From Yuukianura sp. NJ FZ-2021 (taxonomy: Eukaryota): a stretch of 64,000 nt of DNA. The notes under the pieces were generated by a model, which was not told where the DNA came from, did no database searches, and worked only from the letters and a program-made list of their open reading frames with translations. Shown piece by piece: positions 6,894-63,235 of this stretch; the stretch's first letter is position 1; every line of letters starts with the position of its first letter. The DNA lies in assembly GCA_046563655.1 (NCBI GenBank), contig CM102289.1:4650001-4714000 (forward strand). Direction: 5' to 3'. The translations under genes and the position numbers were made by a program.

Positions 6894-9800
6894 TTACCTA
6901 AGTTGCGCAATTGTATCCAAATTAAGTTCATGAAGTTCTTTTTGCAGTTTGTGCGGTAAGCCTGGAATGTAAATTGTCGCCTTTCTCCTGCAAAAAAAAA
7001 AATCAAAAAGTATTCGGGGCGGCGCTGAACATTTTCGGTTTAGGAATTATAGGAGCTAATATACTAAAATAATTTATTTGATGGTTTACCGTTGTTGTAC
7101 AATTTGTTCATTTTCACGTTCCGGAGGCATCAACATGAGATTTCTACGAAGAAATCCTTTGCCACAGATTGGAACACTTTCGTCCAGAAACGACTCCAGC
7201 ATCACAATTTGCTCCAGTTGGGTGCACAACTTCCAGATTTCTGCTCTCTCCCAAAAATCCTAACAATCAAAACTATATTTAAGTCAATTCATACTGCAAC
7301 AAAAAAGAGTGGCTCACAAATTTCAAATTTTTAAATACCCGTATTTCTTCAGATGCCAAACCAATGAGAAAATTCACCAGAAGTACCACAATGATCACAA
7401 TGAAAATTGCGAGTGCCAACATCACAAAGCCGGAGAAAATGTTGTCCTTTGAATCTCCGTAGAAGAGGCCATTGTAGTCCAGTTCACCGATCATAAACGT
7501 TATGATTTTTACAAAAGACTGGGCAGCTGAAGAAAATGAAGGTTCCTAAACTAACAAAACTCAAAATAAATACCACCAAATAATAGAATCATAAATTACT
7601 TTGGAGTTCGATTTTTTTTGAAAGCTTGCCCCTGGTAGTAGAAGGACGAAAATAGTGGCAAAACCAAAGAGTATTGGAGCAGTTACTGCAATTGCGATCA
7701 CCAGTGTTTGCGTGGACTGTTCAGAAAGTCATTTTTCACTTGTACCAATTCATTCTTATATTTTTTAAGAAAACGAGCCCCAGAAAACAATTACCTTCCA
7801 AAGTAAATTTATGTACACTCTAAAGCGTGGTATTTTCCCGAGTTCAATGTTAATAGCAATCCAAATTAGAAGACCCAGTATCTATGCATGGTATTCAAAA
7901 AAAGTATCAACACATTAAAAAGAAAAAATGCTGATTTAAGAAACCTAAAGAAAACACTTACACCAGCAATGATGTATTGGCAAGTTTCGTCAAATAAAAA
8001 TACTCCCAACGTAGGCAGAGTGCTAAGCACAATTGTCAAAGAGAGCACTAATGGCCAGCTCGGTAGAATTTTGAATACCATTCCAATGTAGTATCCAATC
8101 GTTTGAAAAAATGCTTCAATCCAACTCGTTTCTGCTTTGAATTGCTTCATAGGTCGAAATATCCAGTGCAGATTTTGTTTCGTAACATGAAATTGGCTCA
8201 ACAAGAATACGAAAACTGCAAATAAATTGAAAAGCCCACTCCAAAATATTTTTGGAGTCATTTCGCATTCGAATAAACCTGCAACAGAGAATTCACATAT
8301 TAATAAAAACATGTTAAAAAAGTAGGTAAGTAATGAAATCTGATAAAAAACAAAACAACAACAAAAAATAAAATCTTGAGGTTCCCGAATCCCGATATTA
8401 CTTTTGTGCTTTGCATCACTAGGAGCGTCATCTGAAGCGGGTGGTCGCAGTTTCAGCCAAGAAAATTCGGTTGAATTTTGGTAAGGGCAATTGATTCGGT
8501 AAATGTGCACAACCAAGAAGAAGTTGAACAGATACCAGAGCATCTGGAAATACAAAACACTTCTGACAACAATGCTTTTTCAAGTTTATTGAGAAAATGT
8601 AAAAAATTAATCGTAGAAAATTTTCGAATAGAAGAAAATTTCTTAAAATCAAAAGAACACGACTCACATGTAAAATACGAAATACAATAAAAAATGTACG
8701 AATCTTTTTCCATTTCTCGTGAATGTAAATTTTGACGAATGTATTGTGCAAAATTTCTTTCCGATCGTCGAATTTGGCATAACAAATTTTGGCTAATTCT
8801 TCCGTTTCTTTGTACACATTGGATTTGGTGGTGCTATAGCCAAGAATTGGACTGGAAACAAAAATATATTTCAATAGAATAGAACTTTATAAGTTTATAA
8901 GTTTCTGAAACGCTACCCAAAGTCTAATTCTGCAATATATTTCATAAACTAATTGAATATATTATCAATAAATTGTCCATGTTTACCCAAAATCCAGCTC
9001 TGCATAAGTATTGACTGAATTGATGTGTTCAACAAAACCGGAGTTTTTAGCCGCTTCATCTAAAAGCACATTGACGGCTTGTGGAATTTTCTCATAAACT
9101 TTCTCTAGTGGAGTCTTGCCACGTTTAGATCTTTTCAGAAAAATGGAAATGTAAAAACAGTTTTGAAGAAGTTCTGTTACACCAAAGGAACAATTTTTGA
9201 TTCTACCTTATGTCAAAAGCTGATCCAGCAAGAAGCAAAATTTTGGTTGCTTCAATATTTCTGTTTGCTGCTGCTAAGTACAGTGGTGTACAACCATCTT
9301 GATCCTGAGCATTCAGCAATTGTTTCTTCTCTTCCTCGTCTTCAATGTTGTTCAAAATTGTTTGAACACAAGCCTCAGCTTTGTACTGATTACCAAGATT
9401 TGCTGCAGAATGTAGCACAGTAAATCCCGTGTTTCCTTCTCTAACGTTGTAGCACTCTGGAACCATTTCCAGAACCTGAGCGTATCCACGACGCGCAGCA
9501 ATATGAATTGGACAACTTCCGCCAGAGTCAAAATGGTTCAAACCAACTGACTTGATTTCTTCATCTACGTTGTCAATCAGAACTTTGGTGCATTCAATCG
9601 CCTTTTTCATAAATCCTAAAAGCATAATTCAATTTCAAAGTTTTTTTTCAGTTTCGAAAAGAAGCTTTCTTTTTCTACTAAAATCGTACCATGTCCAAGG
9701 CATCTATGGAACACGTTTCGCCCAACTTTATCCACCTTTAGAACGTCAGCACCGCTTCGTATTAAGATTTCAATTAGCGCAGCATGACCAGCAATTGCAG

Positions 9801-12336: not shown

Positions 12337-14257
12337 TGCCCGTATACATAATGACGGTTCACCCGTAACCTACGGATCAGGATTTGGTGAGACCGATCCG
12401 GGGGTCAGGATCACAGTAATCCGTGAACGGTATACATAATATAATCTTGAGCGGTGGATTTGTAAATCCGGTTCACCTGAACGTGATCATCGGATTACTC
12501 ATTTTTACATGCCACATTTAAATACTTCAACAACAATGTATTATGTTGATTAAAAATGTGACAAGTTTAATGCTCCTTTTATTTTCAGGTGGCAAAGTTT
12601 TCAAACTTTCTATAACACAACACCATTTTTGTTGTGTTTTATTAAAGTAATTAACGAAATAGTTAATGATTCAATTAATTTCTGAACAAAATAGGAAACT
12701 AATGGGACAAAATGCGGCCATGCTGTGCATATACTGCGCAAGTACTGCGCACTGCGCAAGTACTGCGCAGTACTTGCGCAGTGCGCAGTGCTTCCGCAGT
12801 GCTTCCGCAGTGCTTCCGCAGTGCTTCCGCAGTGCTTCCGCAGTGCTTGCGCAGTGCTTGCGCAGTGCGCAGTACTTGCGCAGTGCGCAGTGCTTGCGCA
12901 GTACTTGCGCAGTGCGCAGTGCTTGCGCAGTACTTGCGCAGTGCGCAGTGCTTGCGCAGTGCGCAGTGCTTGCGCAGTACTTGCGCAGTGCGCAGTGCTT
13001 GCGCAGTGCTTGCGCAGTGCTTGCGCAGTGCGCAGTGCTTGCGCAGTACTTGCGCAGTGCGCAGTGCTTGCGCAGTGCTTGCGCAGTGCTTGCGCAGTGC
13101 TTGCGCAGTGCGCAGTGCTTGCGCAGTGCTTGCGCAGTGCTTGCGCAGTGCGCAGTGCTTGCGCAGTGCGTAGTACTTGCGCAGTAGTTGAGTAATTGCA
13201 TGATTCCAACCGGATGATCTTTGATTCCATCTTTTGACAAGCAAACGTTGACAAATGACATACACAACATCAGAACCTTCCGGAAATCAGGAAATTATTA
13301 TTTTTGTGTAAAGTCAAGGCTAGAGTAAAGTTCGAAACGATTTTTTTTTGAAACATTTTGAAAAGAAAGAAGATGAGATGATGAAATGTTGAGAATAGTG
13401 AAAGCGAGAGATTGATTTTTCCATGGGGTGGTTTTTGCACCCTCCTATTCTTGTCCGAACCCCTCATCCCTTAACAAGGTTTAAGAGCACATTCCATTTG
13501 TTATACACACTAAATATTTTTGTGATCTGTGGGTCGTATACGAAAACTTTTTAGTTTTCAAAAACATCCAGTAGAATCTTCTGCATAACAAATAGTTTCG
13601 AAAAAATTGCATCACTCTACCGGTTTGGTCATTTTATACAGAAACGTAAGAGATCAACTTTTTTATCTTCTTTTTCCTATAACCTTTAATGCCCGTATAC
13701 ATAATGACGGTTCACCCGTAACCTACGGATCAGGATTTGGTGAGACCGCACTGCGCAAGTACTGCGCAAGCACTGCGCAAGCACTGCGCACTGCGCATAT
13801 ACTGCGCAGACACACTGCGTTTTAAGTTCCATAATTTTTATAGAGTCAGTTGACGCAAACTGTACAAAAGTTGAAATTTATATAAAAACTTTAGTTCTAT
13901 AAATTCTGTAAGTTTTTTCTGACATTTATAACGCAAACTCCTTAATAAAACTGAACGCTTAACTCGTGGGAAAAGAATATACTAAACAAAAATTAAAATA
14001 ATTCCAGTTGAATCAAGTGGTGAACCTACCCCTATACCAGGGTCACGAATTTTGATCCCGATCATAGTGATCCGGTTTACTTTTTTGTATTATGTATACG
14101 AATATAACCCTGAGCGAGGGATCAAACAAATTTTTGATCCGAGGTTTACGTGAGCGGGTCACCGATGACCTCGAGACTCATTATGTATAGGGATCAGGGT
14201 GATCGGTTCAACTTTTCATGATCGGATCACCGTGATCCGGCATTATGTATACGAGCA
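12337..14257. mobile_element. Non-autonomous PIF/Harbinger-like (Tourist-type) composite element
   Basis: Terminal inverted repeats TGCCCGTATACATAATGACGG (12337) and CCGGCATTATGTATACGAGCA (ends 14257), each flanked by TTA. A second copy of the left ~59 bp lies at 13690. No transposase ORF. Confidence 0.7.
12732..13185. repeat. GC-rich tandem array of GCGCAGT (7 bp) and GCGCAGTGCTT (11 bp) units
   Basis: Directly visible; a short reverse-orientation run of the same unit lies at 13748-13810. Confidence 0.95.
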
Positions 14258-24565: not shown

Positions 24566-25041
24566 CGAAGCACGCCATTAGATAAAAAAAAAGACATAGA
24601 CAAAAGACATCCGAGAAAAAGACATCGAAAAGAAACACATCGAAATAGCAAACACATCGAAAATGTAAACACATCGAAACAAAAGACATCGACAATGTAA
24701 ACACATCGAAACAAAAGACATCGAAAACTAACCTCAGTCAGCCCAACCTAGAGTTTTCATTTTTAGGCTGAAACTGCACGCACCAATTTCGTTGCAATTT
24801 CCGCGCCCAAGGCGCGGCGTTAGGTTTGGTAAAGCACGCAATAGTGACTGCGTGCGTAAGTTTGGCTGATGAGGTTAGCTTTCGATGTCTTTTGTTTCGA
24901 TGTGTTTGCAATGTCGATGTCTTTTGTTTTGATGTGTTTACATTTTCGATGTGTTTGCTATTTCGATGTGTTTCTTTTCTATGTCTTTTTCTCTGATGTC
25001 TTTTCTTTCAATGTCTTTTTTTTATGTAATGGCATAGACCC
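24566..25041. mobile_element. 476-bp foldback-type non-autonomous DNA transposon with 8-bp TSD
   Basis: About 175-bp inverted arms built from ACATCGA(A) repeats; CTACAGTT direct repeat at 24558-24565 and 25042-25049. Confidence 0.85.
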
Positions 25042-25308: not shown

Positions 25309-26411
25309 ATGCTAACGTTAGCATCGGGTACCCGATGGTCAACCATCGAGATTGGCATTTTTTTCTTAAGTTTTACTTTAATTGGACTTGATGCCAGCGA
25401 TTGCTTGTACAACCAATGTACATTTCCCCCGGAAGGATATCACAGTCCGTGCTCAGGCCTTGGAAATAGACAGCTAATTCGCAGTGTTAGTTGCGGTGAC
25501 GGATCACTTTGGCACATTTGCTGCTTGACACACCGTAAGTTTTAAAAATTCAACCTTCTCAAAAATAATATTTTAAACCTGTAGCTACTCCCATGTCCTT
25601 AATTTTCGGGAAAAAATTATTTTCAGAACGCGACGACATTCAAAAGAGTCGGCAAGAGTGGTTTCGAAAAGTTACCAGATTGGGAGTCACCATTGGACCC
25701 AACTGCATGCGCAGAATCCTTTGTGAGCAGTCGTGCAAAGATGGACTCAGCGGAAAAGCCCGATCCGACTACCCAGAAGTCCTTGACACAGAAATGAACG
25801 ACGACGTCGCAAAAAGTTATGTCAAAGCGTACGCTGATGGAGAAAATTTGTCTTGCTATGGTCTTGTCAAGTCTGGCGACGTTGTCGCCACGACATCCGA
25901 TTGCGAAAGTCGTTGCAGCGAAACTTATTCCGAATGCCTTGCTGATATGGAATCGAATTTCGATGCGCAATCCATTTACGCCGTATCAGGTATTGGGCAC
26001 AAGTTGGGAATGTTTTTGTTTAACGTTGTTTGGTGGATGGATGATGGTGCGACGTGGACCAAGGATTTTGTAAAAGCAAAATTTGGCGAATTGCGCGATG
26101 GTATGAACAAGCTACAGCAAAATTTCGAATCCTATTTGGAAAAGGATCCGAGACCAAAACGAAACGCGGATTCTGAAAAGTATGAAAAAAATTGGGAACC
26201 ATTTCTGAACTGGTATAATAAAACAGATCCAAGATTGGTAGAAATTCTGTCTGGTCAAGTAACTTATCAGAAATTTCTGTTTTACAAAAACGTTACAGAG
26301 GAAATCGTATTGAATGAGAATTTTGAAAATTTTCCGAAGTCGGGATGTTGCAACACATCCGCATTTGGAAAATTTGTCATTGCTTTAATTCTGTTTGTTT
26401 GTTACTTTTAA
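25309..26411 (+). CDS. Cys-rich secreted, possibly GPI-anchored protein with DM4/DM12-like motifs (2 exons)
   Basis: Signal-like N-terminus; phase-1 intron ending at 25626; GPNCMRRILCE and YVKAYADG...C...YSEC motifs; hydrophobic C-terminal tail. Confidence 0.65.
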
Positions 26412-38038: not shown

Positions 38039-39656
38039 TATACTTTTTGAAAATTCAACTAACTTTGCTACCTCAAGTTGGAATCAAAGCTAAAAATGAT
38101 TTCCAAAATTCTGTAGTGGTTGTTGTAAATGATTTCTGAGAAATGGCGTGAATTTGATGACTATCCTCAGTATTTGTACTGACCGGTTGGTTCAGAAATT
38201 CCCACAGATGCTGTTCTATTGTTGTTCTTCAACAACAATTGCTGGAGGAAAACCGGTCTTGTCATGTGCTCATTTAATACACACGCTACATCTTCAATTA
38301 TGACGCCAAGCTCTGATCTGATCATCAACCCACCATTATGTAATATTTCGTATTTCATAAGCTTTTAACAATCCAGTCCCAAATTTTTGCACATGTTTTA
38401 ATTGAAAAACCAATAAGAACAGAGGAAAATAACATAAAAATGTTTTTGTAAAGTTTCCTCAAAATGTCGCTTTTTAAGAATCGAAGGTCAAAAGACGGGA
38501 GACAGACTGGCTCCGTTGGATTTGTAATTGACAGAAGATCCTGTTCCAGGTACCAAAATTTATCTGGAAAGTCCATCTGACTAGTCCATGTTGGACATAA
38601 ATTAATTTAGCACTCTGAGCGTGTGTTAATCAATAACTAACGTTTCCTCAACCGTTGCAAGGGGGAGTGTACCAAGGATTTTACGCCTTGCGTCATCAAC
38701 AGTCGTCATCATCACACAACATTAAACCTGTTTGTCAGCCTCCTCCTTCCTCCAAAACGTCAAAATTTCTTTGAAGTAGAAGTTGTTGTTGAAGTTACTC
38801 AAAATTCAAAACTCAAAAATTTAGCTCGTATAGCGCCTTGCATCTAAAGCAACATTTTCAAGCTGCTAAACACTTAGAGGGGGTTTGAATTGTTTTGAAA
38901 TCCAGTCGGCTCCAGTTTCAAAGTGCTACAATTAAACCCTAAAAAACCAAGTTAATTTCCATTTGTTTTGCAACTTTTTTCCTATGCTGGCACCGACGCT
39001 ATTATTCTCTTTTACTTCCAACTACACGGCAAACACGAAATACCGTAAAATTTCAAGTAGCCTTGCTGGTTTTAAAAGAAACTAACGGTGTCTAAAGAAA
39101 CAGGAAACGGAGTTTCTAATTCAATTGTGGTTCTACGGTAATGAAGATGCGACAGTGATGTCCTTGCGTGTGTTTGTGTGTTTTTGGTAGGAGGATCACT
39201 GTCAGGGAGAAATGTGGTGGGAATTGTTAGGAGCATTCGACAAAAAGCTATTGTTTGCATGGAATTGTTGACACTGATCTTGGACTCACCTGGATTGGCC
39301 CAACACCCAGCTAATGAGATCTACAACAGTAAGCAGAATTGTGTATGCAAAGTCATGACTTCATCCCACTACTTAGTACTCCCATTCAGTCTCTGCACAA
39401 AGCGCAATTAAGACAATTACCACAGTTCACATTACTCACTCGCACCTAATACTTACAAATAATACTTAGCAGTGCATCACAAAATCAGTCGTCACTTTGC
39501 AATCAGTTCTTCACAACAGTATTGAACCGGATACGATAACAAAGGTTAGGGAAAGTTGGACGCTGTTGGAGAAATAAGTTGCTGAAAATATATACGTAGT
39601 CTGTAATTCGTAATGAATTTGTGTCACTTTCCTGTCATTTTTGCGCTTTCTAAATT

Positions 39657-42600
39657 ATGCGACACCATTTTCACCTCCTGTTGACCTTGGCCCCCATCTT
39701 CCACCTCTTGTCTCCTACCCAAGCTGCTGACTACTTCGAGTACAAGAAACAGTTCAGACCTTGTACTCTTCTTCAGTTCAAGTAACACACAGTCCAATTT
39801 TTTTGAAGTTGTTTTCCGAATTTAATTGCATTTGCATTGCATGTTTTCTACTAAGGTCGTTGACTTTTAAGAATGCTGGAGGCCTGGAAAGTGTTCCTCC
39901 AGGATACACATTCTTCACAGCGAAAGATGGGAACGTGACATACGAAGTAAAATCTCTAGAAGATCAGTGCAAAGCGAAGCACTGTCACGATGGTCCTTTT
40001 CAGCAAGAATGCAAAAGCCTGGAATCCGGTGACCAAGTTGTAAGGCAATATTTAAAGGAACGCTATGTTGAAAATTGAAGTTTAATAAAAACCAATTTGT
40101 TGATTCTGAATTTCAGGATTTTCAAAACAGTTTCAATGAAACGCTCATCTGTATATGCGAATCTGTAAGAACGCCGCCACAAATTTCAACAAAACAATTT
40201 TTGCACTGATTGCATCTTTTTCAAATTGTTTGTTTAAAGTAATTACAAGAAGAATTTGTTCTCAAGGATGTTCCTGAAATTCTACAAGACCAACCGTTTG
40301 ACAGGAACCACACGGGAGCCGTGTTCTCCCCTTATGTCAAAAACTGGTCAAAGGTCAGCTCTGACGGAACCAGCGTCATTTCCAAATGGAATAACTACAC
40401 ACTCGATGAAGTCAAGAGTCTCATCTCCATCTTAGCTACAAAGTTCAAAAGATTCTCAACATACGGAATTGGTGCAACTTGTAAGTTTCGAAATCCCCAT
40501 CTCTCCCCAAATTCAAAATCAAAAAAGTATACATAACTTTTTTCTGTAAATTTTGTCAGCAACTTCTCGATCTTGGGATGGCGGAGATTCAACAGGGCTT
40601 GTCCCAGTTGCCACAGCCCAAATTAACCAACTTATAGTGTCCAAAGGACTTTCACCACTTACAATTCTCCAGGGAATTTATCAAAACGAGTACAATGAAA
40701 TTCGGAACCAAGAAATCAGAAATGCACTGACGGCTGCGCGAGACGCCAACGCCATATTTCCTGGAACTGTTATTGGACTCATTTTTACCAGCGACTATGT
40801 AACTAACAATGCCACGGCAAACGAAGTTTGTTCACTTCTGGACCAGTACAGAAACGAAACAGAGGAATTGAAACTGAAAGTTGGAGTTCGACTCAAAAGT
40901 TGCACAGACATCATCCCCACGAAGCTACCAGAGGCTGAGTAATTCAAAACAAAATTTTTACTTCGGTAAAAATCGAGTCCAAAATTCAAAATTATGCGCT
41001 TTTTTTAAGCAATCACTTGCACAGTCTTCCTGGCAACTACACATACGCCCAGTTCCAATCAGGAGAGCCAGAATCCATCTTCCAAAATCTGCTGAAGCGT
41101 GTGGACTTTATAATTTGTTCAAATCCTCCGCCAGCATTTTTAGTCGACGAAGCAATGGAGGATGTCGTGATGCAGTATGGATCCATTTTTCTCAAAATCC
41201 AAGATTTACTGCGCGGAGTAAAGCCAAATCTGACTGTGATTGCGCAAGGTGGATGGGCCAGTTGGGGAGTCAGTAGAAACGGAGCCACAAACAACGTTAC
41301 CAATATGGTTGAATTCTGGAATCGGATGGATGCCTGGGCGCATGAGCATTCCTTCCTACTCGACATGTTCGAATCCTTCGACGAACCTTGGAAGACTGAT
41401 GTGAATGACCGGAGTAGTGCCAGTGGTGGGCCCAGTGGTCCAGTAGGAGCAGAAGGGAACTACGGCTGGTGGAAACGATATGACAGCGCCAGTGGAAACT
41501 TCTACACTTACGTCCCCAAAGTTCAAGGTCGGCACCACTCACGCTAATTTTTTGAGTACCATCAATTTTGACCTTTGTTGGCATTTTTAGAGCTGGAAAG
41601 TGTTTACCCAGAGACAGACAACTTTAAGACTACTGCTGGAATGGACTCTGTTACTCTTGCGCTCGTCACGGTTATCGTGGGTGTTTTGGGTCTCACTGGG
41701 TTTCTAGTCTGGCGTCTAAAAAAGTCCAGGGTGACGTCCATATCAAAAATCTGATTTTCAAATGGAAATTTTGAATTGTATTTTGACATTTTGACTTGAA
41801 TTTTTGAATTCTAGAAAAGTAGTATATCGGCGGAAGCATTGGAAATGGCTTTGGAATTTCGAAATGGGCTTGCACTGTCGTCGGAGTCTGTGGAGAAATT
41901 AGCGCAGAAGTCAGACGGAGGAATGCCGCTGGATATGATGGAATCCAACGGAGGGAAATCGTATATTTTTGCGCTCCGTTTTCCATATGACAAAAAATAC
42001 GAATTGGACAAGAAATCATTCACTGTCGGTAAGAACCGTCTCTTACAAAACTTTTTTGAACTTACAAAATTGAAATGTTAACATAACCTGAATTGGAATG
42101 GACAGACGAAGACTGTGTACTTGGGGTGGGCAACTATGGCACAGTGTACAAAGGAGAGATTCATGGAGTGGTCACTGAAGCTGCATTCAAAACGCTCAAC
42201 TCCAATGGGTCCATCATTGAACTCAAAAATTTGCTGTCAGAAATCAAAATCATGGCGTATGTTGGACAGCATCCAAACATTCTCATGCTCATAGGAGCTT
42301 ACACTGCCAAAATCGAACATGGTAAACAACCTAGTCTAACTTTGGTTTCGAAGCAACTCACCCTAAACTAAAATATCTGCAAATATAATGCCAAATATTT
42401 TCAATCTTAGGAGTTATTTACGTGGCTACAGAGTTCTGTGGTCTCGGTTCCCTAGAAAAGTATTTGAGGGCTCAACGTCCTAACTATCAAGATGGATCTC
42501 AACCTCCTGCGCCTGCGCCACTTCCTGCCCTGAACTACGTCATGGCATTCATGTAACAGCTTTCAAAAATTAAAAACTTACTAACTTATGTAATTATAAT

Positions 42601-43371
42601 TGCATTTTCGAAATTTCAGTCAATCCGATCCTATCCCTTCGTCTTTCATAATTCCTCAAAAGTCTTTGACATTAGCGGATTTGCTTAAGTGGGCCTATGA
42701 AATTGCCTGTGGAATGGAACATATTGCCAACAAAAAGGTTAAACCTAACCTAAATTTCGTAATACAAACTTTTACAACAAAATTTTAAAAATATTAACAC
42801 TACGATTCTTGCGCAGGTCGTCCACTCTGACTTGGCCACTCGGAACGTTCTGCTGACTTCCGATGGAACTGCGAAGGTGGCTGACTTCGGTTTATCTCGG
42901 CAATTGTACTACCATACGAATTACCTTAAATCTAATCGGAACGAGGAGTTGCCATGGCGATGGATGAGCGTCGAGTCTCTCCGATCACTCGTCTTTTCCA
43001 CCCATTCAGACGTCTGGACATTCGGAGTCACTCTGTGGGAAATACTCAGCCTAGCACAACTGCCCTACCCGGGAGTACCCGGATGGACGCCATCTTTCCT
43101 CCATGAACTGGAGGCAAACGACTACCGTATGGAACCGCCCCCACATGGATCACCGCAAATGTGAGCACTTCAAAAGCTATCTTTACTTAACTTAATATGT
43201 ATTACTAATACATTTCCGTCTTCCTTATACTTTTATGTTCTTAGGTACGAACTTATGCTCAAATGCTGGGCAAAGGATCCAGTCGCTCGTCCGACCTTCA
43301 CGTCACTCAAGGAAACACTTCTTCTGGAATGCCAAAAACAAAGCCAACATTCAAATGGAAGACCAATATGA
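39657..43371 (+). CDS. Receptor tyrosine kinase (PDGFR/VEGFR-like kinase) with GH17 glucanase-like ectodomain
   Basis: Thirteen phase-consistent exons: 39657-39781, 39856-40039, 40117-40164, 40267-40480, 40560-40938, 41025-41527, 41591-41730, 41815-42028, 42106-42321, 42411-42552, 42620-42737, 42817-43160, 43245-43371. Signal peptide; GH17-like motifs; TM VTLALVTVIVGVLGLTGFLVW; kinase motifs GVGNYG, AFK, SEIKIM, HSDLATRN, DFGLSR, LPWRWMSVE, SDVWTFG and CW...RPTF. Confidence 0.85.
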
Positions 43372-44314
43372 ACTGCTCTTAAATTTAAACGCATAGGTTA
43401 ACAAAACAAACTTTTGAGAAATTCTAGTTTTAAAACACAAGTCATTTAAAGTATATTTAAAATATCAACGAAACTTAGAAGCAGTTAAACAAATTATCTG
43501 TTATGGAGTTTCCCCTTTTCACATTAACGTAATCGCGTGGTGGTAAAGTAAGCGTTACTTGCATGAAACGTTCTATGACCAAAAATTTTATTGACGCGCA
43601 AATCGAAGACAGTGTATTTTTTTTCGTTAAATTCAAAGTAGGCCGAAAGTTATTATTGTTTGATTAAAAAGTATTTTGAAGAAATTGCGTAGGAGAGAAT
43701 GAGTGAAAGTTACTTCGTGCGATTCATGTGCTTAAAATGAGTGATTGTTGACCCGACCTACTGAACATGGAGATAAACTCAGAGGTCAAAAGTCAAATCA
43801 ACAAGTAGAGCTATGGAAGATTTTTGAAGTTGAAGGCAGCTCAGAAGCACAAGCTACACACACACTCAGAAACAAATATCTATAGGTTTAAAAAGGTTAT
43901 GACCTTTTGATGACATCCACAAAAAGCATTTCCTAGAGTTGTGCATCCAAAATAATCCGTCATAACAAACAAGCGAGTTTCGCAACTCCATTCACACAAG
44001 CATTTTTTATTCTTAGAAGATGGCTTTATAATTAAAAATGTAAAACGTGGTGGGTTGCGTAATGATGCAATGTGAGTGATGAAAGGAGGAAGTTTTATTC
44101 AAAACTAAACACTAAATTGAAAATGAGAGAATTGGACTAAACTAGAACTTAATTAGATTTGTTTCCAGAAACAAACCAGAATTTAATATTTTCAGAAAAA
44201 GGAGACTAAAAAAATTCAATTTGGCCACGTTTGAAAATTAAAAAAAGTAATGAAATTTAATTTAATTTAAGCTTAATGTCTGTGACGCCAAGTAAAAATG
44301 TCACAGGATATTTT

Positions 44315-45253
44315 CTAGTGTTTGTTCTTGCTAAGAAAGATTTTGGCCATAAGGCATTGAGCGCTCCCTCCCCCAACTTCCTCAATCGTTGACAAATCAG
44401 AGTGCAGGATTCGATTGTACGATTCCAACTTAGCTCGTTGTGCCTCCGAAAGCGACTTGAATGCTCCAGTTGACATGACCAGAAACACCTCTCCGTCAGA
44501 ATTCTGCAACTGGATCATGTTTCCAACGAAACTGTGCAATTGCACACGCGTGATTGGCAGTACTTCTTTGCCAGTTGCCTCCAAGGTGGCAGCCAGCAGT
44601 TGACGCTCTGCAAGATCTTCGATGGATTCCAAGCACACGAGAGCATATCGGTCTGCAATGCACATCATCACATCCGTGTGGTAGATGGGGACTCCATTTT
44701 CGTCTTTGGCTTCGAAGATGACATAGTTGGCCACTCCAAGGTCGTCGACAACTTTCTGAACGAGTTCCTTGTGGGTGCGACCGGAAAGGCAAGCGTAAGC
44801 GACTTGATTGTAGTAGTCAACGATGACAGATCCAGCCCCTTCGCAGTACTTTTCTTCAGCTTCAAAGTGGGACCAGTCGAAGAGCTGAGTAACGTTGAAC
44901 GTTGTTTTGAGGAGGTCAATGAGGTGGGGCTTTCGTTCCTGCCTTCGATTCTGGGCTTCCATTGGGTAGAAGCAGAGAGAGCCATCGGGTAGGGTGGAGA
45001 CCCAGTTCGTAGGGAAGATGGAGTCCGGCGTATGCGGAGTGTAGGAGTCGGTTCCCACGGTAACGTCGATCTTGTGGTCGCGCAGCAGTTGGACCATGCC
45101 ATCGAACTCTTGAAGAGCCTTTGGTTGAGTGTTCCCAATCAACCCATTCATTGGCTCCTGCTGGAACATATTGTCATGCGCAGTTTGGTAGTTGAACTCA
45201 AAGCGAACCGGACGAACCATGAAAACTTCGCGGCAAATTGACGGGTCAGTCAT
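44315..45253 (-). CDS. Bacterial-type amidinotransferase / arginine-deiminase superfamily protein (CtlX-like), intronless CDS
   Basis: 312 aa with motifs MVRP, TAHDNMFQ, TPDSIFPTNW, YPMEAQNRRQE, EGAGS, AYACLSGRT, IYHTDVMM, GNMIQL and GGGSAQC. Confidence 0.88.
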   Translation of the reverse strand: MTDPSICREVFMVRPVRFEFNYQTAHDNMFQQEPMNGLIGNTQPKALQEFDGMVQLLRDHKIDVTVGTDSYTPHTPDSIFPTNWVSTLPDGSLCFYPMEAQNRRQERKPHLIDLLKTTFNVTQLFDWSHFEAEEKYCEGAGSVIVDYYNQVAYACLSGRTHKELVQKVVDDLGVANYVIFEAKDENGVPIYHTDVMMCIADRYALVCLESIEDLAERQLLAATLEATGKEVLPITRVQLHSFVGNMIQLQNSDGEVFLVMSTGAFKSLSEAQRAKLESYNRILHSDLSTIEEVGGGSAQCLMAKIFLSKNKH

Positions 45254-46663
45254 TTTCTACAAACAAAGAAAACCATTAATTACTACATGAGTTTTAGAAC
45301 GTAGTAGGAAAATCAGTTATGCATTCTTACCCTAGATGCTGATATCTTTAGAAGTATATGGAACTGTTAGCTTCTTATTTAGACTTTGTTAGCGTTGATA
45401 GCAATTGACACTAAATTGAAAGATGTGTTTGCGTTGACGAGTTGATTGAAACTGGAACGTTAAGTCGATTCGGGGTCAACTTTAAACACAAACTGTCGGT
45501 GGCTGTGGGTCGTCACAGGGTGAATTGACAACGTCAACGGAGGGTTGTTGATGGATAAATCCACGTCAAAGCCTGTTGTTGTTGTGGCATGTTCTTGTTT
45601 GTGCTACTTTAATGCAGTTAAGCCCTAGCGTCAGAGGAAAGTCTGGGAATCAATTTGGACTTTGAAACAAAGCCTCCCAATGAGTCGTAAAACTTTAGAA
45701 AAGAAACTATTCAGTACAAACTAACCTCATATCACTTCAGCAAAACTTTCCAAAAGGCCTCAAATCTAATTGGAAAATTCAAACAATTGTAGTAGGTCAA
45801 ACCGTAATATTTTTAGAAACGGCTTTCCCAAATGCAATGCAAACAAACTCAACCGTTAAAAACATATCTAGAATTCCTTTTCTCTCTTCGCAGAATTAAG
45901 GAAATTACATTAATTCCATTGGAAATGAGCGAACGAAAGATAGAAGAGCAAAAATGAGGAAAATAAAGTCAAATAATGTCGAAACTAAAGTAAAAGAAAC
46001 TAAACTTTACTCCCGGAATTAACAGGAGTATTATGTTCGGATCTTATCTCTGCGTAACCTTTGAGGCTGACCTAAGTTGAGTTTTGAGCATGTGGCACTT
46101 TTGCGCATCTAAGCGAATCAATCAGAATTAACAACAATCCCAAAAAGTGAGCGAGTGATCAGCATATCGAGCAGCGATTTTGTTTCAGACACTTAAAAGA
46201 TTAGGCGTCTCTTAATTATATTCGCGTTGAGACGACGAGACATAGCATGAACGCATGAACCTAATGACGACTGGAACATGGGAACCAGTTTATAGAGCAA
46301 CTGAAACTGGACACTTCCAGTCATAAAAGTGTCTCTGGGATTTTGTCAACCGGATTATTGCTGTATTAAAAAAACAGAATTATGTACCATATTCTTAACA
46401 TTGTTTAAAATGGAGAAGGGGGGAAGGTATGGAGGGCCATGTCATGCATGCATGACAATGCTTGACATGATGTCAAGCATTGTCTACACTGTGGCCTCTG
46501 AAATACTATGGGGAAGTGAAATCAAACAGTCAATATTTTAATGTCTAAATACAGGCATGGGTTACATGTAGAGTCGTCATCCTGCGTCAGCGTTTAACGA
46601 TTCAAGACATAAAAATATAATGAGTTTTCGCGAGATATCTAACTATTAAAGGACACTTGTGAT

Positions 46664-49116: not shown

Positions 49117-49790
49117 GGTGATCTCCAAAAAAATTTTCAGTGATTAGGGATGATTTTTCAGTGATACTTGAAAAATTCTAAACTGATGATTTAGCAGTGA
49201 TCACTGAAAAATTGTCAGTGATTCCTGAGAATTTTTCAATAATCACTGAGAAATTACCATTGATCACTGAAAAATCACCAGTGATTGCTGAAAAATCGTG
49301 GGTGATCCCTGAAAATCTGTGGTCACTGAAAAATCATCAGTGATCACTGAAAATTTGTTTAGTTGGTCACTGAAAAATCATCAGTGATCACTGAAAATTT
49401 GTTTAGTTGGTCACTGAAAAATCATTAGTGATCACTGAAAATTTGATTGGTTGGTCACTGAAAAATCATCAGTGATCCCTGAAAATCTGTGGTCACTGAA
49501 AAATCATCAATGATCACTGAAAATTTGTTTAATTGGGCACTGAAAAATCATCAGCGATCACTGAAAATTTGATTAGTTGGTCACTGAAAAATCATCAGTG
49601 ATCACTGAAAGCATTTTAGTGGTCAGTCACTGAAAAATCAATGTTCACTGAAAAGTTTTTACTATTTACTGAAGAGGTTTTGGGGGTCACTAAAAAATCA
49701 CCAGTGTTTACAGGAAACTTTTTGGTGGTCGCAAAAATCTACAATGATATTTGAAAAATCCTCGTTGATCACTGAAAAATCATCACTGAT
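49117..49790. repeat. Minisatellite with 44-bp core unit containing the palindrome TCAGTGATCACTGA
   Basis: GGTCACTGAAAAATCATCAGTGATCACTGAAAATTTGTTTAGTT units start at 49321, 49365 and 49409, with degenerate copies on both sides. Confidence 0.9.
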
Positions 49791-51281: not shown

Positions 51282-52414
51282 TCAAGGAATTTTTCTTCCT
51301 CCGCGGCGGCCGTTGAACGTATAGTTCTTCTGAGCAGCCTTTCCAAACTAAAGTTTAACAAAAAAAGCCGGAAATTAAAAAGTCATAATAACGATTTTTC
51401 AATTTCTAAAAATTAAAAAAAAAGTTCTACCTCAGAGTGCGAAGCGGGAGTAATTTTTCCAAAAGTCGACAGTGGAATAGGGATGAGGAAACTCTGAGCG
51501 GGGTACGCCGAATGGCTGAAGAGTGGCGAATCCATTGCAAACAACCAGTTGTAAGCGTGTGCAGCAGTACCTTAAATTCAAATTCACGCTTAAGAACAAG
51601 TCGGAAGGACTAATTGAAAATGATGTGAATAACCAAACATTATAATGCTGACCATGGTTCGCTTTGTCGTCCGTTGTTTCCGGAACGATTCCAGTGAAAC
51701 GAGTCGTGTGAGCAACAAATCCAGTTGGAGCTGGAACGACGAGAAGTGGAACTTCCTCTTCTTCGGCACTCGGAAGGACAACTTCCGAGTCATCCGCATG
51801 CTCAATGCTCACTCCGTTTGTTTGTGGGTGACGGATTGTCACATCCGAGTTTGCGCCGATTCTGGCAGCTTCTTTTGCGTAAGTGGCCAGGAACTTTTGT
51901 TTTGCTTCGGTGACGGCCGGAGTATCTCGTGGTGGCAAATGGTCCCCTACTGCATGGAAACCTCCTGCGTCTGCGCCGTAGCTGACATTGATGACTTTCC
52001 CCTCGGGGTCTCTGTAGGAGTACTTGCCCTCCACAGTTCCATCAGCATGTCGCCGCTCCTCCCGACTCGAATCCACCGAAGAGTAACCGAACCTACACAG
52101 CGACCACGACCCTTTTTCGTCATTTGATCTTTTCAAAAGCAAAAACGCTAAATAGCAAATTACTTGGAAAATCAGACTTACACGTATTGCCCGTCGACAG
52201 GGTTGACGTCCATGAAGTGGATGAGAGCTGGTGCTTGGCTGTACTGCCTAGGGTAGGCGGAAGTGGACGTTAAGGCCACAACAAGCACCTTGACAACGGG
52301 TAGGAACAAGTTCCTGAAGGGCGCTCCAGCGGGATTTCCCTGTCCAAATTCATTCACGTCAAAAACAATCACTTCCTCCAAATACTCACAAACAACGCAC
52401 AAAATGGCCCACAT
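51282..52414 (-). CDS. Cuticular protein with R&R chitin-binding domain (CPR family)
   Basis: Signal MWAILCVV...; YRFGYS...REERRHADGTVEGKYSYRDPEGKVINVSYGADAGGF; DTPAVTEAKQKFLATY motif; last exon ends GGRKIP-TGA. Confidence 0.88.
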
Positions 52415-58674: not shown

Positions 58675-61600
58675 TTAATAGTGGTCGAATCCGGGCATTG
58701 GGAACTTCGTGGCAAATTTCGCCACCTCCCCCTTCAACGCCTCAACGGTCTTGAGTGTGGCAGGGTCCGTGGCTAGGAATTCCTTGAAGTCCTTCAACTT
58801 ATCCGTCTTGGACTTGACGTCGAGGGCAATAGCCACAGCCTGGTCCAGGAATTTCGCAACTACTCTGAAGTCATCTTCTTTGAAGTTACGGGATGTCAAG
58901 GCAGGAGTACCTACACAAGTGAAATAGACGTTCAGCCTTCAGTAAACAGCGTATAATTTTGGATAGATATTTTAGTTGAGTAGGAAGTGTCACTGTCACC
59001 TAGTCTAAGGCCACTGGGGTTTAGAGCACTCTTGTCGCTGGGGCAAGTGTTCTTGTTGGCTGTGATATTTACTTTGTTGCACACCTCCTCCACTCGAGCA
59101 CCATCTAATCCCTGTTGAAATCCAATAGTTTTTTTTATCCCATTTAGAAGCTTCTCAACGACCTTGTAATGATGAATGATTCAGAAAACTTTGTTACCTT
59201 GGAAGCCTTGAGGTCGACGAGGAAGAGGTGGTTGTCAGTGCCACCAGAAACTACTTTGTATCCCATTTGCGTCATCTCAGCAGCAAAAGCTTTGCAGTTC
59301 TTCAGAACCTGCTCCTGATACTCCCTGAAGTGGGGTTCAGTTGCCTAAACAGAGAGAACAATTTGGAATTCAACTTGGCGAGGTTTTGTTGCTTAAACTT
59401 GTCAAATTCAATTCGGGTATCTGCAACATTGCACTCAATAAGATGACTTGCCTGTTTGAGGGCAACTGCCACTCCAGCAATGCTGTGCATGTGAGGTCCA
59501 CCTTGAATGTGCGGGAAGACGGAAAAGTTGATGTTGTTCTCCAAGTCGTACTTGATCTCCTTGCCAGTTTTGACATTTTTACGTGTCCCTTTACGGTAGA
59601 AGATGAGTCCAGCTCTAACTCCGCGCAATGTCTTATGTGTGGTTGTCGTTACCACATCAGAGTAGTCAAATGGAGACGGAATGACTTTCGCTGCCACGAG
59701 CCCGCTAATGTGAGCCATATCTGATAGGAGGTAGGCACCAACTTCGTCACAGATTTCACGGAAGCGAGCGTAGTCCAAGAGACGACTGTAGGCTGAGTAG
59801 CCAGCGATTATGACCTTGGGGCGGAAGAGGCGGGCGTTGGCATGAAGTGTCTCGTAATCGATGAGACCTAAACACAAAAATATGTTCTTAAGAAGAAAAA
59901 TTCCGGTTTCTCAGTTACAAACGTTTCACGAATCACGAGACGAAAATAAATGGAAATGTTCGGTATAATAAGAACCTGTGTTGACATCTAGTCGATAAGG
60001 CATGGATTCGAAGTAGACGGAAGTGGCTGAAATTCGTTTGGTGTCAGTCATAAATCCATGTGTCAAGCTGATGAGTAACAAAAGTTCAAATTAAGAAATG
60101 AGACGGAAGAATGAGAATGAAAATGAGTAAAAAGTAACTTACTGTCCACCGTGTGGCAAGTCCAGGCCCATGATTCTGTCGTGTGGTTTCATGAGAGCAG
60201 TGTAAGCCTCAAAGTTGGCTGGCGACCCAGAGTACGGCTGGACGTTGCATCCCCACTCTGCCGGGTCGAGAGAGAAAGCTTCAAGGGCTCTCTTCTGACA
60301 CAAAAGCTCCAGCTTATCCACCACCTCGGTACCTCCGTAGTATCTGGCTCCTGGGTATCCTTCGGCGTACTTGTTGTTCAAGCAGGAACCCATCGCTTCC
60401 AAGGAGGCTCTGCTCGCAAAGTTCTAATTAATTCAAAAAAGAAGAAACAGAATTCTCATCTGATTGTAGAAGGGCGTCGAACTAAAAAATTGCTCAATTG
60501 ACAACTGACCTCCGATGCGATGAGCTCCAGTCCAGCGAGTTGTCGTTGTTTCTCCTCTTGCACCAAGTTCCAGATTTCAGGATCATCCTGACTCAATGGC
60601 TCTTGGCCAGTCCAAACTTTCTTGTCGCTAGACATGTTACGAATGGCAAAGGAGGCAGAAGACAAATTCAGTTTCCTGTAACACAGTTGCTGAACCTAAA
60701 ATCAAAGAAAGGAGAATGAGTACAACGCTCTTAAACTAAACAATATTAGAGGTCATGGGAGTGGACTCCGCGATCCGAAGTGTGAGAGTGTGAAACTGAT
60801 GACACTGCTAAATTGGGTAATAATCTACTCATGTCGGTTCACCCCTTACCCAATGCTATTCAATCTCAATGATAATCCCTGTTCTGCTTATAAGATAGGT
60901 TATAATCCTGACACTGACACAAGCAGAAAGTTGAGAACAAAGCTTAGAAGTAAAGCAAGGAAAAAGGTTGAAGGTCATTAGACCAGTTTTAGTAAATTCA
61001 AGAGATTCTTATATCAGCTTCTGCTAGGAAAAATGAATTTTCATAAGCATAGCACATGAATGGAATACAGGCTTAAGTTGTTTAAGCTTATAAGATGCTG
61101 CCCAAAATAAATGTTTTCAGTCCTCGGTATTGGAATAGGAATCAAACCACAAAAAGGCAAGAGACATGGCGGACGGAATCCACTGACCCGATGATATAAA
61201 CAAAGTTGCATAATTTCCAATTCCAACCTGTCTCCTTAAACTGGTTCCTGGTACACTTCACGCCGTTCACGAGGTGATAATCGGTAGAACAATTACTTAC
61301 TAACTTACAGGATTATTATGATTTTGCACAATAATCAAACACCAGTAAACGACAAAACCATAATAAGAAATGCCGGTGGACGGGCACAGCAATATCAACA
61401 AGTGATTGTAAAGTGCGGGGGACACTAATTCGCTGATTGCTCGGATTTTCCTTTCTACATTTAAGACAACGAATATAAATGGCGACAAATTGAAATCGTA
61501 TGTATGGATTGCTTCATTATTGTTTCCATTCTAGCCCGATTGATTGGCAGAACCCAAATATAGTGAAAAGTGGAAACTCAGAAACATCGATTTTTGATTT

Positions 61601-61813: not shown

Positions 61814-62452
61814 TGAGTCGCCGTCTCGGAAGTAGCGATGGAGGATTAAGCAAGTGGTGGGGAAGACTGGACAGGGGATTAACGAAGAGTTGAGAAATCA
61901 TGCAAGTCACAATCCTCACCACTATCAGGACTTTTGACCTCATTGGTCAACTCCAGTCACAAGGTCATTCCAGTGAAACTATCCAACCAACAAGTTCCCA
62001 AAATGATTTAGGAATCCTAAATTAGGATCTTAAGGATGATGCAAAAAATATTGCAAGTAGAAATGACGCGTGACTGGCCAGGCCACCGCTCCAAAAAAAA
62101 GGCATGAACAAAAGTGGGGACTGAAGTAAGCTTTAGCAGTTCTTGATGACACTTCTTGACACTTGACATGGGTGAGATGACAAGTGACCGATATTTGATC
62201 TTTGTTTTCTTGAGTGCTTGCCAAATATTGGCATAACGACGAGTGGACTCAAGGGAAAGCATGTGTGGGTAGTTTTGGAAGTGGATGTAGTAGGCCACCA
62301 TTTCCGTTCTCATAAGGCATGCATTGTCCAGCTTAGTGGCAGTCTCTGCATTTATTTCTCTTTCACAAGGCTATAAAAGAGCCCTGCGTAATTTGAGGCC
62401 TGGTTAGACTGAATACAGTTCTTCATGAGGTCAAGTGGGTCATGAGCACGAC

Positions 62453-63235
62453 ATGAGTCGCTTCCTGGTCTGGGCACTCTTCTTACAGACCATTTTCTGC
62501 CTCCATCTCACAAACAAACATCATCGTTGGATCCCAGTGCACGGTCCATACGGTCGTATCACTCCGGACAAGTTAAGGGGCACGCTCACACTGTCTCCAA
62601 GCAAGAATTACTTCAAGCACAACGAGAAATTTACTTACCCAACTTCAGTTCCTCCAACTTGGTTTGAAACAAAAAATGGATCCAGCAGGAAAAAGTATTT
62701 GGGACGCCTCCAAATTCAGCAGTCATTCAAAAGTAACCAATTTCTGGTTCCGTCTTTAAGTTCCAGCTTGAACAAGCTCCCAAGCAAGGAGAAGGAATGC
62801 AAGGGGCTGGACAACCTGATAGGCGACATTGGAATCATGAGCTACGTCCTAGGTCTCGTGGGCACAATGAACGGATTCTTCACTCTCCTTGTCGGCTTCG
62901 TTAGTCAAATCCAGACATTTCTCAGCACGTACTTCGTCGGTGTGCCCAGTTCCATGCTCACGCTCAACACATTCTTCGGAGATCCATCGGCCATTCCATC
63001 GTGGTTCGTCAACGCCGTTTCTTGGTTTGGAATCGTTGACACTTTCGTCAACATCACGTTCGCCAATAACGTCAACGGTCTCGTGAACTTGTTCAGTATT
63101 CTGGGGGCCATCTTCTCCTTTGTGAGCTTGTACATCGGCGTCGCGTCAACTTTCCCAACGGCTGTCAAGTACGTGTTCAAGGAACTGCTTGGCGCAGATC
63201 TAGAAACACTTTTCGCCAACTACGGATGCCCATGA
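62453..63235 (+). CDS. Intronless uncharacterised protein with signal peptide and hydrophobic C-terminal half
   Basis: 260-codon ORF from ATG 62453; TATAAAA at ~62372; signal-like MSRFLVWALFLQTIFCL. Confidence 0.65.
   Translation: MSRFLVWALFLQTIFCLHLTNKHHRWIPVHGPYGRITPDKLRGTLTLSPSKNYFKHNEKFTYPTSVPPTWFETKNGSSRKKYLGRLQIQQSFKSNQFLVPSLSSSLNKLPSKEKECKGLDNLIGDIGIMSYVLGLVGTMNGFFTLLVGFVSQIQTFLSTYFVGVPSSMLTLNTFFGDPSAIPSWFVNAVSWFGIVDTFVNITFANNVNGLVNLFSILGAIFSFVSLYIGVASTFPTAVKYVFKELLGADLETLFANYGCP

Follow-up and report, generated by a model that had tools for sequence, protein, structure and literature searches.

A candidate beta-glucan-binding receptor tyrosine kinase with a predicted GH17-type pseudoenzyme ectodomain in Yuukianura

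Animal receptor tyrosine kinases (RTKs) are usually regarded as receptors for protein growth factors. Beta-glucan sensing by arthropods is known through soluble, GH16-derived proteins that feed protease cascades. Here we describe a gene that appears to combine the two subjects in another way. The gene lies at 39657-43371 (+) of a 64,000-nt stretch of DNA from Yuukianura sp. NJ FZ-2021 (GenBank assembly GCA_046563655.1, contig CM102289.1, positions 4,650,001 to 4,714,000; this whole stretch is called the window), and it is predicted to encode a GH17-type ectodomain, a transmembrane (TM) helix and a complete tyrosine kinase in one chain. The encoded protein is probably a beta-glucan-binding RTK with a disarmed GH17 groove, which would be clustered by the polymer that it binds.

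A whitefly paper of 2025 (PMC11800479), in its excerpted text, states that GH17 is undocumented in animals, which agrees with the rarity that an earlier, sequence-only reading of this locus had assumed, and that GH17 catalysis requires two glutamates. A literature search, with supplement file 1 of PMC4987106 and the bioRxiv supplements outside its scope, found no paper on GH17 in springtails or on a GH17-RTK. The term "tyrosine kinase" is not present in the main texts of the Orchesella cincta and Folsomia candida genome papers, and "GH17" is not present in the Cryptopygus GH paper. In the main text of the O. cincta genome paper, in the parts available, beta-glucanase is named only among transferred functions. 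Supplement file 2 of the same paper (PMC4987106) places the gene Ocin01_12095 among horizontal-transfer genes, under "carbohydrate metabolic process"; the entry gives KIT as its best Swiss-Prot match and a cyanobacterial protein as its best TrEMBL match, and assigns it to the orthogroup orthomcl1330, of which one species has 15 copies and ten others have 0. This gene probably belongs to the GH17-RTK family described here, flagged by a pipeline and not described. Judged from that supplement file, the family would have about 15 copies in O. cincta.

One spliced gene for a membrane protein

The gene was rebuilt from the window by three-frame translation, chaining of open segments and joining of the segments at GT..AG sites. 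The result is a model of 13 exons with a 2769-nt open reading frame (ORF) for 922 amino acids, from the ATG at 39657 to the TGA at 43369-43371. All 12 introns are GT..AG introns of 63-102 nt, and the phases match at 12/12 joins. From the N to the C terminus, the protein consists of a signal peptide, a module with six Cys, a GH17-type domain (aa ~116-491), a TM helix (aa 510-530), a juxtamembrane motif and a split tyrosine kinase, and is thereby predicted to be a type I membrane protein. The sequence-only reading had proposed 13 exons in one frame with matching phases, a series of GH17 and juxtamembrane motifs in a given order, and a single gene for signal peptide, GH17-type domain, TM helix and tyrosine kinase. 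The rebuilt model reproduced the exons and the frame, every named motif was found in that order in the spliced protein, and the single gene was borne out by the model together with its ortholog in a metagenome contig, L001.

Exon 1 (39657-39781, aa 1-42; this and all following exons are on the + strand) contains the start codon, a hydrophobic N-terminus with a signal peptide at about aa 1-24 (nt 39657-39728), called by eye without a predictor, and the beginning of the Cys-rich module; it ends at a GT donor and has an orthologous exon in L001. Exon 2 (39856-40039, aa 42-103) carries Cys 80, 85 and 94, has a counterpart exon in L001 and has no Pfam match at E<=1. Exon 3 (40117-40164, aa 104-119), a 48-nt phase-0 exon in the window and in L001, ends the module with C115 and C117. 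The six Cys of the module (39729-40164, aa 25-119) are conserved in L001, and the O. cincta protein P0019 shows a similar C-x-C ending. A Pfam search of the module gave no match, and the AlphaFold confidence for it in P0019 is low (pLDDT 38-56).

The GH17-type domain begins in exon 4 (40267-40480, aa 120-191), which was assigned by profile match and by the motifs FSPY (aa 139-142) and STYG (aa 183-186). Exon 5 (40560-40938, aa 191-317; profile match and alignment) covers strands 3-5 with LQGIY (aa 227-231) and the acid/base position. Exon 6 (41010-41527, aa 317-490) covers strands 6-8 with GGWASWG (aa 397-403), FESFDEPWK (aa 437-445) and AEGNYGWW (aa 464-471). Two sites of the domain are central to its interpretation. 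The codons for S268-D269 (40790-40795, +) stand at the site of the GH17 Asn-Glu acid/base pair, as placed by alignment to enzyme-type GH17, and the codon for Q396 (41245-41247, +) stands at the site of the catalytic nucleophile Glu, as placed by alignment to PDB 6fcg and by the family table.

Exon 7 (41591-41730, aa 490-536) encodes a stalk and the TM helix (nt 41650-41712), followed by the basic stop-transfer sequence RLKKSR. The helix is the single strong hydrophobic segment, with a top Kyte-Doolittle 19-residue mean of 2.41 at aa 510-511. There are 10 N-x-S/T sequons in the ectodomain versus 1 in the cytoplasmic part. Read-through into intron 7 (41731-41760) gives ...KKSRVTSISKI and then a stop, with 8 extra residues; retention of this intron could possibly yield a kinase-less, membrane-anchored GH17 pseudoenzyme as a decoy isoform. 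Exon 8 (41815-42028, aa 537-608) encodes the juxtamembrane region with LRFPYDKKYE (aa 590-599, nt 41974-42003), and the same type of motif follows the TM helix in P0019, P0026 and P0064.

Comparison with other DNA indicates that the gene is real and conserved and not an artefact of the model. The metagenome contig L001 (7126 nt) contains a colinear relative with an intact 908-aa ORF in 13 exons, and 12/12 intron positions and phases are identical to those of the window. Over the whole protein, 61% of the amino acids are identical, with values of 65% for the GH17 part and 70% for the kinase. The nonsynonymous divergence (pN) is 0.21 in the GH17 part and 0.19 in the kinase, compared to a synonymous divergence (pS) of 0.77-0.83, which points to purifying selection on both halves; synonymous sites are saturated (pS 0.77-0.86). 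At the DNA level, exons are 64% identical and introns 51%, compared to 48% for shuffled introns. The flanks of L001 and of the window showed no convincing synteny, so the orthology rests on the gene itself. DNA contigs from public runs also cover the locus. A 27.6-kb contig of run X3 spans 39400-43600, and a contig of run X5, from a different study, spans 40925-42015, across the joins between the GH17 part, the TM helix and the juxtamembrane region. No second copy of the receptor gene was found within the 64-kb window.

The GH17-type ectodomain and its relatives

Several comparisons show that the ectodomain is GH17 by descent, homologous to GH17 glucanases. Exon 6 alone matched PDB 6fcg, a GH17 endo-laminarinase, at E 1.1e-4, with IGETGWAS of the enzyme aligned to IAQGGWAS of the window. 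With this exon as the query, HMMER was run exhaustively against 1.84 billion representatives and returned 85 matches, of which 30 had E<=1e-10, and a Pfam scan of 22 of these relatives listed PF00332 at E<=0.01 in 17/22 and above the curated cut-off in 10/22. The whole model matched a profile of 7 GH17 proteins at E 2e-82 over profile positions 15-346. It also matched P0003, a free arthropod protein, at E 3e-62, and P0003 itself scores 42.4 bits on Pfam GH17 against a cut-off of 28.2. A profile built from 48 family rows recovered GH17 structures from the PDB, including 6fcg (5.7e-19) and 4wtp (1.4e-14; 4wtp/4wtr ~1e-14), as well as 8akp and 3ur7. The ortholog fragment P0001 scored 18 bits on PF00332, below the cut-off of 28.2.

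AlphaFold2 was applied to residues 1-540 of P0019, the nearest relative with an annotation; in the resulting model, the GH17 part shows eight strand-helix units and a pLDDT >90. In a Foldseek search with the ectodomain model, the top three PDB matches were GH17 structures, followed by other beta-glucan-active TIM barrels. The two catalytic positions of P0019, Q294 and E423, are found in this model where strands 286-293 and 418-423 end, as expected for strands 4 and 7 of a (beta/alpha)8 barrel of clan GH-A. The exons gave no Pfam match to a GH16-type domain or to CBM39, as found in proteins of the GNBP/beta-GRP type; the domain is of the GH17 type. No ectodomain exon had a Pfam match to an Ig domain of the PDGFR/VEGFR/PVR class. 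These results upheld the GH17 nature that the sequence-only reading had claimed, and the AlphaFold and Foldseek check that it had suggested placed GH17 structures on top when run on P0019. The likeness to fungal and bacterial GH17 stood for GH17 in general and for bacteria. The fungal Bgl2/Scw type did not turn out to be nearest; GH17 proteins of bacteria and free ones of springtails and mites are closer.

The ectodomain is predicted to be a pseudoenzyme in which both catalytic glutamates are replaced, the acid/base by D269 and the nucleophile by Q396, and for this reason no competent hydrolase is expected. At the acid/base site, the N-E of the family profile aligns with G-N-E of 6fcg and G-S-E of 4wtp, where the window has S268-D269. 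Among the bacterial and free arthropod rows that have N-E or N-D there, 7/8 read N-E, and the same rows read E at the nucleophile position, where 4wtr, titled an active-site mutant, reads Ala. Both substitutions of the window recur in the L001 ortholog, and fragment P0002 has Gln at the nucleophile. None of the rows with a TM helix or kinase has N-E at the aligned acid/base place, with P0064 having N-E one residue off, and the nucleophile in these rows is Q, E or F. Elsewhere the window has retained 39/55 of the columns that are conserved in at least 12 of 13 enzyme-type rows, and the signature motifs of the sugar groove (FSPY, G-W-A-S, F-x-x-F-D-E-P-W-K and G-N-Y-G-W-W) are kept.

The window protein is not unique, as several members of the family are found in Orchesella. 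P0019 of O. cincta (ODM95569.1), annotated "VEGFR1", is 34% identical to model residues 79-902 (E 1e-150). P0085 of the same species (ODM96865.1, "PDGFR beta") has two tandem GH17-type repeats, at aa 25-313 and 352-601, before its TM helix and kinase, and in P0132 ("Macrophage colony-stimulating factor 1 receptor 1") a partial GH17 domain is combined with a kinase. P0083 comprises a GH17 part, a TM helix and a kinase N-lobe. P0072 likewise has two GH17-type repeats. The O. dallaii models P0064 and P0026 have a juxtamembrane motif of the same type and stop directly behind it, at the exon boundary that precedes the kinase; their ends look like truncated predictions. Word-index searches added little, since they are weak negatives: exon 6 had 0 matches among longer proteins, and the P0019 ectodomain matched only P0019 itself. 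The architecture that had been sought in relatives was found in three annotated O. cincta proteins (P0019, P0085 and P0132) and in L001. The earlier claim of novelty holds insofar as no paper was found that describes such an RTK, and fails as to uniqueness, because those three proteins share the architecture. The plain "VEGFR/PDGFR" names of the Orchesella proteins are explained by the failure of Pfam to recognize GH17-type ectodomains. GH17 is present in soil arthropods, and annotation based on Pfam hides the GH17-RTK architecture.

The kinase and the origin of the fusion

The kinase half matches Pfam PF07714 (PK_Tyr_Ser-Thr) colinearly over exons 9-13, from profile position 6 to 258 of 258, and PF07714 scores above PF00069 on every exon that matches both. 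Exon 9 (42106-42321, aa 608-680) encodes the N-lobe with the Gly loop GVGNYG, K636 and E653 (E 2.9e-9, profile positions 6-72). Exon 10 (42411-42552, aa 680-727) encodes the hinge and the first part of a kinase insert of about 43 aa, which lies between aa 702 and 745 and breaks the Pfam match between exons 10 and 11. Exon 11 (42620-42737, aa 727-766) encodes the end of the insert and helix E (profile positions 96-122). Exon 12 (42817-43160, aa 767-881; E 6.8e-34) carries HSDLATRN (HSD at 42823-42831), DFG, the activation-loop tyrosines YY797-798 (42907-42912) and PWRWMSVES; its best PDB relatives are FGFR4, FGFR1 and RET, at ~1e-27 to 1e-25. Exon 13 (43245-43371, aa 881-922) encodes the end of the kinase (CWAKDPVARPTF; profile positions 234-258), a short tail and the TGA stop. 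The complete tyrosine kinase of the sequence-only reading was thereby recovered: the HRD Asp, D-L-A-T-R-N and P-W-R-W-M are in place along with the other catalytic motifs, and the Arg of HRD is replaced by Ser (HSD).

A non-RD catalytic loop is unusual among tyrosine kinases. It is the rule among the relatives of this one: H-G/A/S-D was found in 28/28 of the clade rows (P0109-P0133, related to window 42817-43158) whose sequence covers the motif, compared to HRD in 4/4 outgroup rows. All top-ranked kinase matches in the protein database that carry an organism name come from four springtail species. In a kinase tree of 37 rows, 29 rows form one clade (SH-aLRT 96), and the five known GH17-bearing kinases all fall inside a 12-row group (SH-aLRT 84) whose other 7 members are kinase-only fragments. 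The tree was built without insect PVR or FGFR sequences and hence supports no claim of a springtail-restricted clade. The ectodomains across this springtail-rich clade are diverse, being of Ig, PAN, LDLa plus trypsin, or Kelch plus Ig type, or nothing that Pfam knows. For example, P0123 of Allacma fusca has trypsin and nine LDLa repeats, P0117 of F. candida has PAN/apple, and P0129 of A. fusca has Kelch and Ig. The shuffling of ectodomains onto the kinase seems to be a habit of the lineage, and the window kinase is most likely a member of the host's own expanded, springtail-rich family of non-RD RTKs. By these kinase relatives and by its neighbouring genes, the host is most likely a springtail.

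As for the GH17 part, organism names were looked up for 30/85 of the exon-6 matches. Those named are springtails (O. cincta, O. dallaii, F. candida and A. fusca), mites (Medioppia and Dinothrombium) and bacteria (Nitrospira metagenome-assembled genomes, MAGs); further relatives are proteins from metagenomes that bear the label GH17 and, in some cases, a dockerin or PEP-CTERM tag. The free arthropod protein P0003 and the Nitrospira protein P0027 are 46% identical, compared to about 33% between the GH17 part of the window and bacterial GH17. An unrooted GH17 tree of 46 rows was built with 44/105 proteins, after removal of short fragments and of 16 proteins from the Nitrospira cluster that were nearly identical to one another. 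In this tree, the bacterial rows form a clade with 100% support that adjoins the free arthropod enzymes. A bacterial origin fits the tree, which is unrooted and sparsely labelled and from which origin, donor and direction of transfer would all have to be read. The history that we envisage is one in which a GH17 gene would have passed from bacteria to soil arthropods, one copy would then have been joined to a member of the springtail-rich RTK family, and the fused gene would have multiplied.

Function, genomic setting and comparison with known systems

We consider it probable that the protein serves as a beta-glucan receptor of the RTK type, and the features of the groove suggest how it might work. 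With its signature motifs kept and its glutamates changed to Asp269 and Gln396, the groove is predicted to hold a beta-1,3-glucan chain without cutting it. A polymeric glucan of fungi, algae or other microbes could engage several ectodomains at once and cluster the receptor, the kinases would then trans-phosphorylate Y797/Y798 of the activation loop and the kinase insert, and the signal would pass inward. The output may be defence, or feeding and gut responses, in a soil arthropod that lives among fungi and eats them. Glucan as the ligand, clustering as the trigger and the biological role are the parts that we infer. If they are correct, the receptor would link a polymer of microbial cell walls to tyrosine-kinase signalling by a direct and different route. 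It would also mean that a microbial domain, probably acquired horizontally, was built into a core metazoan signalling protein and then multiplied. More tentatively, and with rather less confidence, springtails could own a lineage-specific family of pattern-recognition RTKs, in which a bacterial GH17 domain was captured by horizontal transfer, disarmed and joined to an animal RTK, and which expanded in the way typical of immune or chemosensory receptors. In that case it would be the first RTK of an animal to bind a polysaccharide of microbes directly.

A number of observations weigh against this picture. Of the two Pfam matches that the sequence-only reading had expected, PF07714 was found, and PF00332 was matched at E<=1 by none of the ectodomain exons taken singly; Pfam GH17 also misses the ectodomains of P0019, P0085, P0026, P0064, P0056 and P0132. 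The fold prediction was made on P0019, a paralog with 34% identity, and not on the window's own protein. Conservation is the single line of support for the splicing. The non-RD loop may make regulation of the kinase atypical. In the GH17 tree, the membrane-anchored forms are long branches and the backbone is open at 14/43 branches; with such a backbone and an arbitrary root, no donor can be named. A clade restricted to the 11 rows with known membrane anchoring, a group picked after the tree had been seen, was rejected by an approximately unbiased (AU) test (p 3e-13). Four proteins of architecture not yet established (P0056, P0060, P0063 and P0072) nest among these 11 rows, and the test therefore does not decide between one fusion and several. 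A single fusion is suggested by the kinase tree only, with its SH-aLRT of 84. Finally, members of the family vary at the catalytic positions, with the nucleophile Glu kept in P0019, P0021, P0026, P0083 and P0039, and 16/55 of the enzyme-conserved columns are changed in the window, some of them beside the nucleophile (T->G, P->A). Because of these changes, the groove may have been remodelled for another ligand.

This last point leads to the explanation nearest to a glucan receptor, in which the fused protein is the same but its dead GH17 barrel has become the scaffold on which something else binds, for instance another glycan or a protein of the host or of a microbe. Besides the changed columns, it would account for the rapid evolution of the family, whose branches are long and whose catalytic positions hold varied residues; the extra N-terminal module of six Cys could carry the binding site, and the carbonic-anhydrase-like domain of RPTP zeta/gamma is a known case of a dead enzyme domain that binds proteins. 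However, the window and L001 both retain the motifs lining the GH17 groove, the GH17 part is constrained like the kinase, and a change from E to Q at the nucleophile of a retaining glycosidase is a classic way to preserve substrate binding. In the same vein, 4wtr and 4gzi are, by their PDB titles, active-site mutants solved with laminari-oligosaccharides. Another ligand is on this evidence unlikely, though it deserves to be taken seriously. The ectodomain might instead still be an enzyme, a membrane-bound glucanase or transglycosylase whose activity the kinase reports or regulates. Asp269 remains a carboxylate, five paralogs have the nucleophile Glu as mentioned above, and the closest fungal structure, 4wtp, is a glucanosyltransferase. 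Nevertheless, the nucleophile is Gln in the window, in L001 and in P0002, the only N-E pair of a membrane-anchored row is the displaced one of P0064, and the two glutamates are needed for GH17 catalysis according to the excerpted text of PMC11800479, which makes a surviving enzyme highly improbable.

Two other explanations concern the gene and not its function. The model might be an artefact or a record of decay, with a membrane-anchored GH17 gene and a kinase gene lying head to tail, or a pseudogene. The stop reached by read-through of intron 7, with its possible kinase-less isoform, and the O. dallaii models P0064 and P0026 that end just past the juxtamembrane motif would be in line with this. 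However, introns 6 and 7 measure only 63 and 84 nt, exon 8 is without a start context of its own, and the kinase part is without a signal peptide or TM helix. L001 keeps an intact ORF and all 12 intron positions and phases despite saturated synonymous divergence, both halves are joined in three annotated O. cincta proteins, and P0064 and P0026 stop exactly at an exon boundary, like a truncated prediction. A false join or a decayed gene is therefore quite improbable. Bacterial contamination or an assembly chimera could in principle have set a microbial glucanase beside an animal kinase, as the nearest full-length enzyme-type relatives include bacterial proteins. Against this, spliceosomal introns split the GH17 part, identity to bacterial GH17 is about 33%, the region has an even GC content, the genes around the receptor (cuticle protein, DDAH, SHMT and folate carrier) are those of an arthropod, and the joins are bridged by the 27.6-kb X3 contig and by the contig of another study. 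Together with the constraint seen in L001, these findings refute contamination or a chimera for practical purposes.

The DNA around the receptor locus is eukaryotic and AT-rich, and its introns are short. Among the neighbouring ORFs are those for a reduced-folate carrier (5341-6024, +), ankyrin repeats, DDAH (44315-45256, -; E 6e-89, with the full domain in a single ORF), an insect-type cuticle protein (Chitin_bind_4; 51432-52247, -), a HAD hydrolase and SHMT (59302-59910, -). Such a set of genes is ordinary for an arthropod. Three open frames, at 25569-26411 (+, 280 aa), 62429-63235 (+, 268 aa) and 7866-8579 (-, 237 aa), gave no Pfam match. Repeats were observed at three places in the window. 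The region 12610-13294 contains a tandem array with the 11-nt unit TGCGCAGTGCT, and also periods of 29 and 40, at 12746-13169; the long ORFs there are artefacts of the repeat, since the array is open in all six frames. Two short tandem arrays about 150 nt apart, at 24617-24731 and 24880-25023, have mutually reverse-complementary units (AAACACATCGAAA... and TTTCGATGTGTTT...); they form an inverted pair and are possibly the ends of a small mobile element. The array at 49191-49661 has nested periods of 21, 44, 126 and 170 nt and a palindromic core, CAGTGATCACTG, and lies in the most AT-rich part of the window.

Compared to its closest relatives, the window protein shares most with P0019, P0085 and P0132, which have a signal peptide, a Cys-rich module, a GH17-type domain, a TM helix, the juxtamembrane motif and a split non-RD kinase, and whose records were annotated by kinase similarity alone with the ectodomain unnamed. 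P0019, at 34% identity, is a paralog or distant ortholog, and it differs in having the nucleophile Glu and a Gln at the acid/base place. The closest kinase domains, with 57% identity over exon 12, are those of springtail Ig-type RTKs annotated as VEGFR/PVR-like (e.g., P0109 of O. cincta). They share with the window the non-RD catalytic loop, L-P-W-R/K-W-M and a kinase insert, but their ectodomains are of the Ig type, which the window lacks.

The closest enzyme-type relatives of the ectodomain, with 29-35% identity over about 350 aa, are the free GH17 proteins of A. fusca (CAG7698437.1), F. candida (XP_021951588.1), Medioppia and Dinothrombium, and the GH17 of Nitrospira MAGs. In contrast to the window protein, the free proteins are secreted, about 330 aa long and without a TM helix or kinase, and most rows have N-E and E-T-G-W-P-S intact. 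Solved GH17 structures (Formosa 6FCG; Rhizomucor miehei 4WTP/4WTR; plant 3UR7, 2CYG and 1GHS) have the homologous (beta/alpha)8 domain with G-W-P/A-S and F-E-A-F-D-E-P-W-K, whereas the window protein has D269/Q396, a tether to a membrane kinase and an extra Cys-rich module in front.

Compared to known systems of similar design, the window protein has several features of its own. The GNBP/beta-GRP proteins of insects likewise represent an arthropod use of a catalytically dead glucanase-type domain for beta-1,3-glucan recognition, but they are soluble, they derive from a GH16 beta-sandwich and not a TIM barrel, and they act via protease cascades and not via a kinase on the same chain. Tobacco CHRK1 likewise carries a dead glycoside-hydrolase ectodomain on a membrane kinase; it is, however, from a plant, its ectodomain is of the GH18 type, its kinase is a Ser/Thr kinase that belongs to the RLK/Pelle family, and it represents an independent invention. 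Mammalian Dectin-1 is likewise a membrane receptor for beta-1,3-glucan that works through clustering and tyrosine phosphorylation, but it has a C-type lectin fold and its kinase, Syk, is recruited, whereas in the window protein the kinase is part of the same chain.

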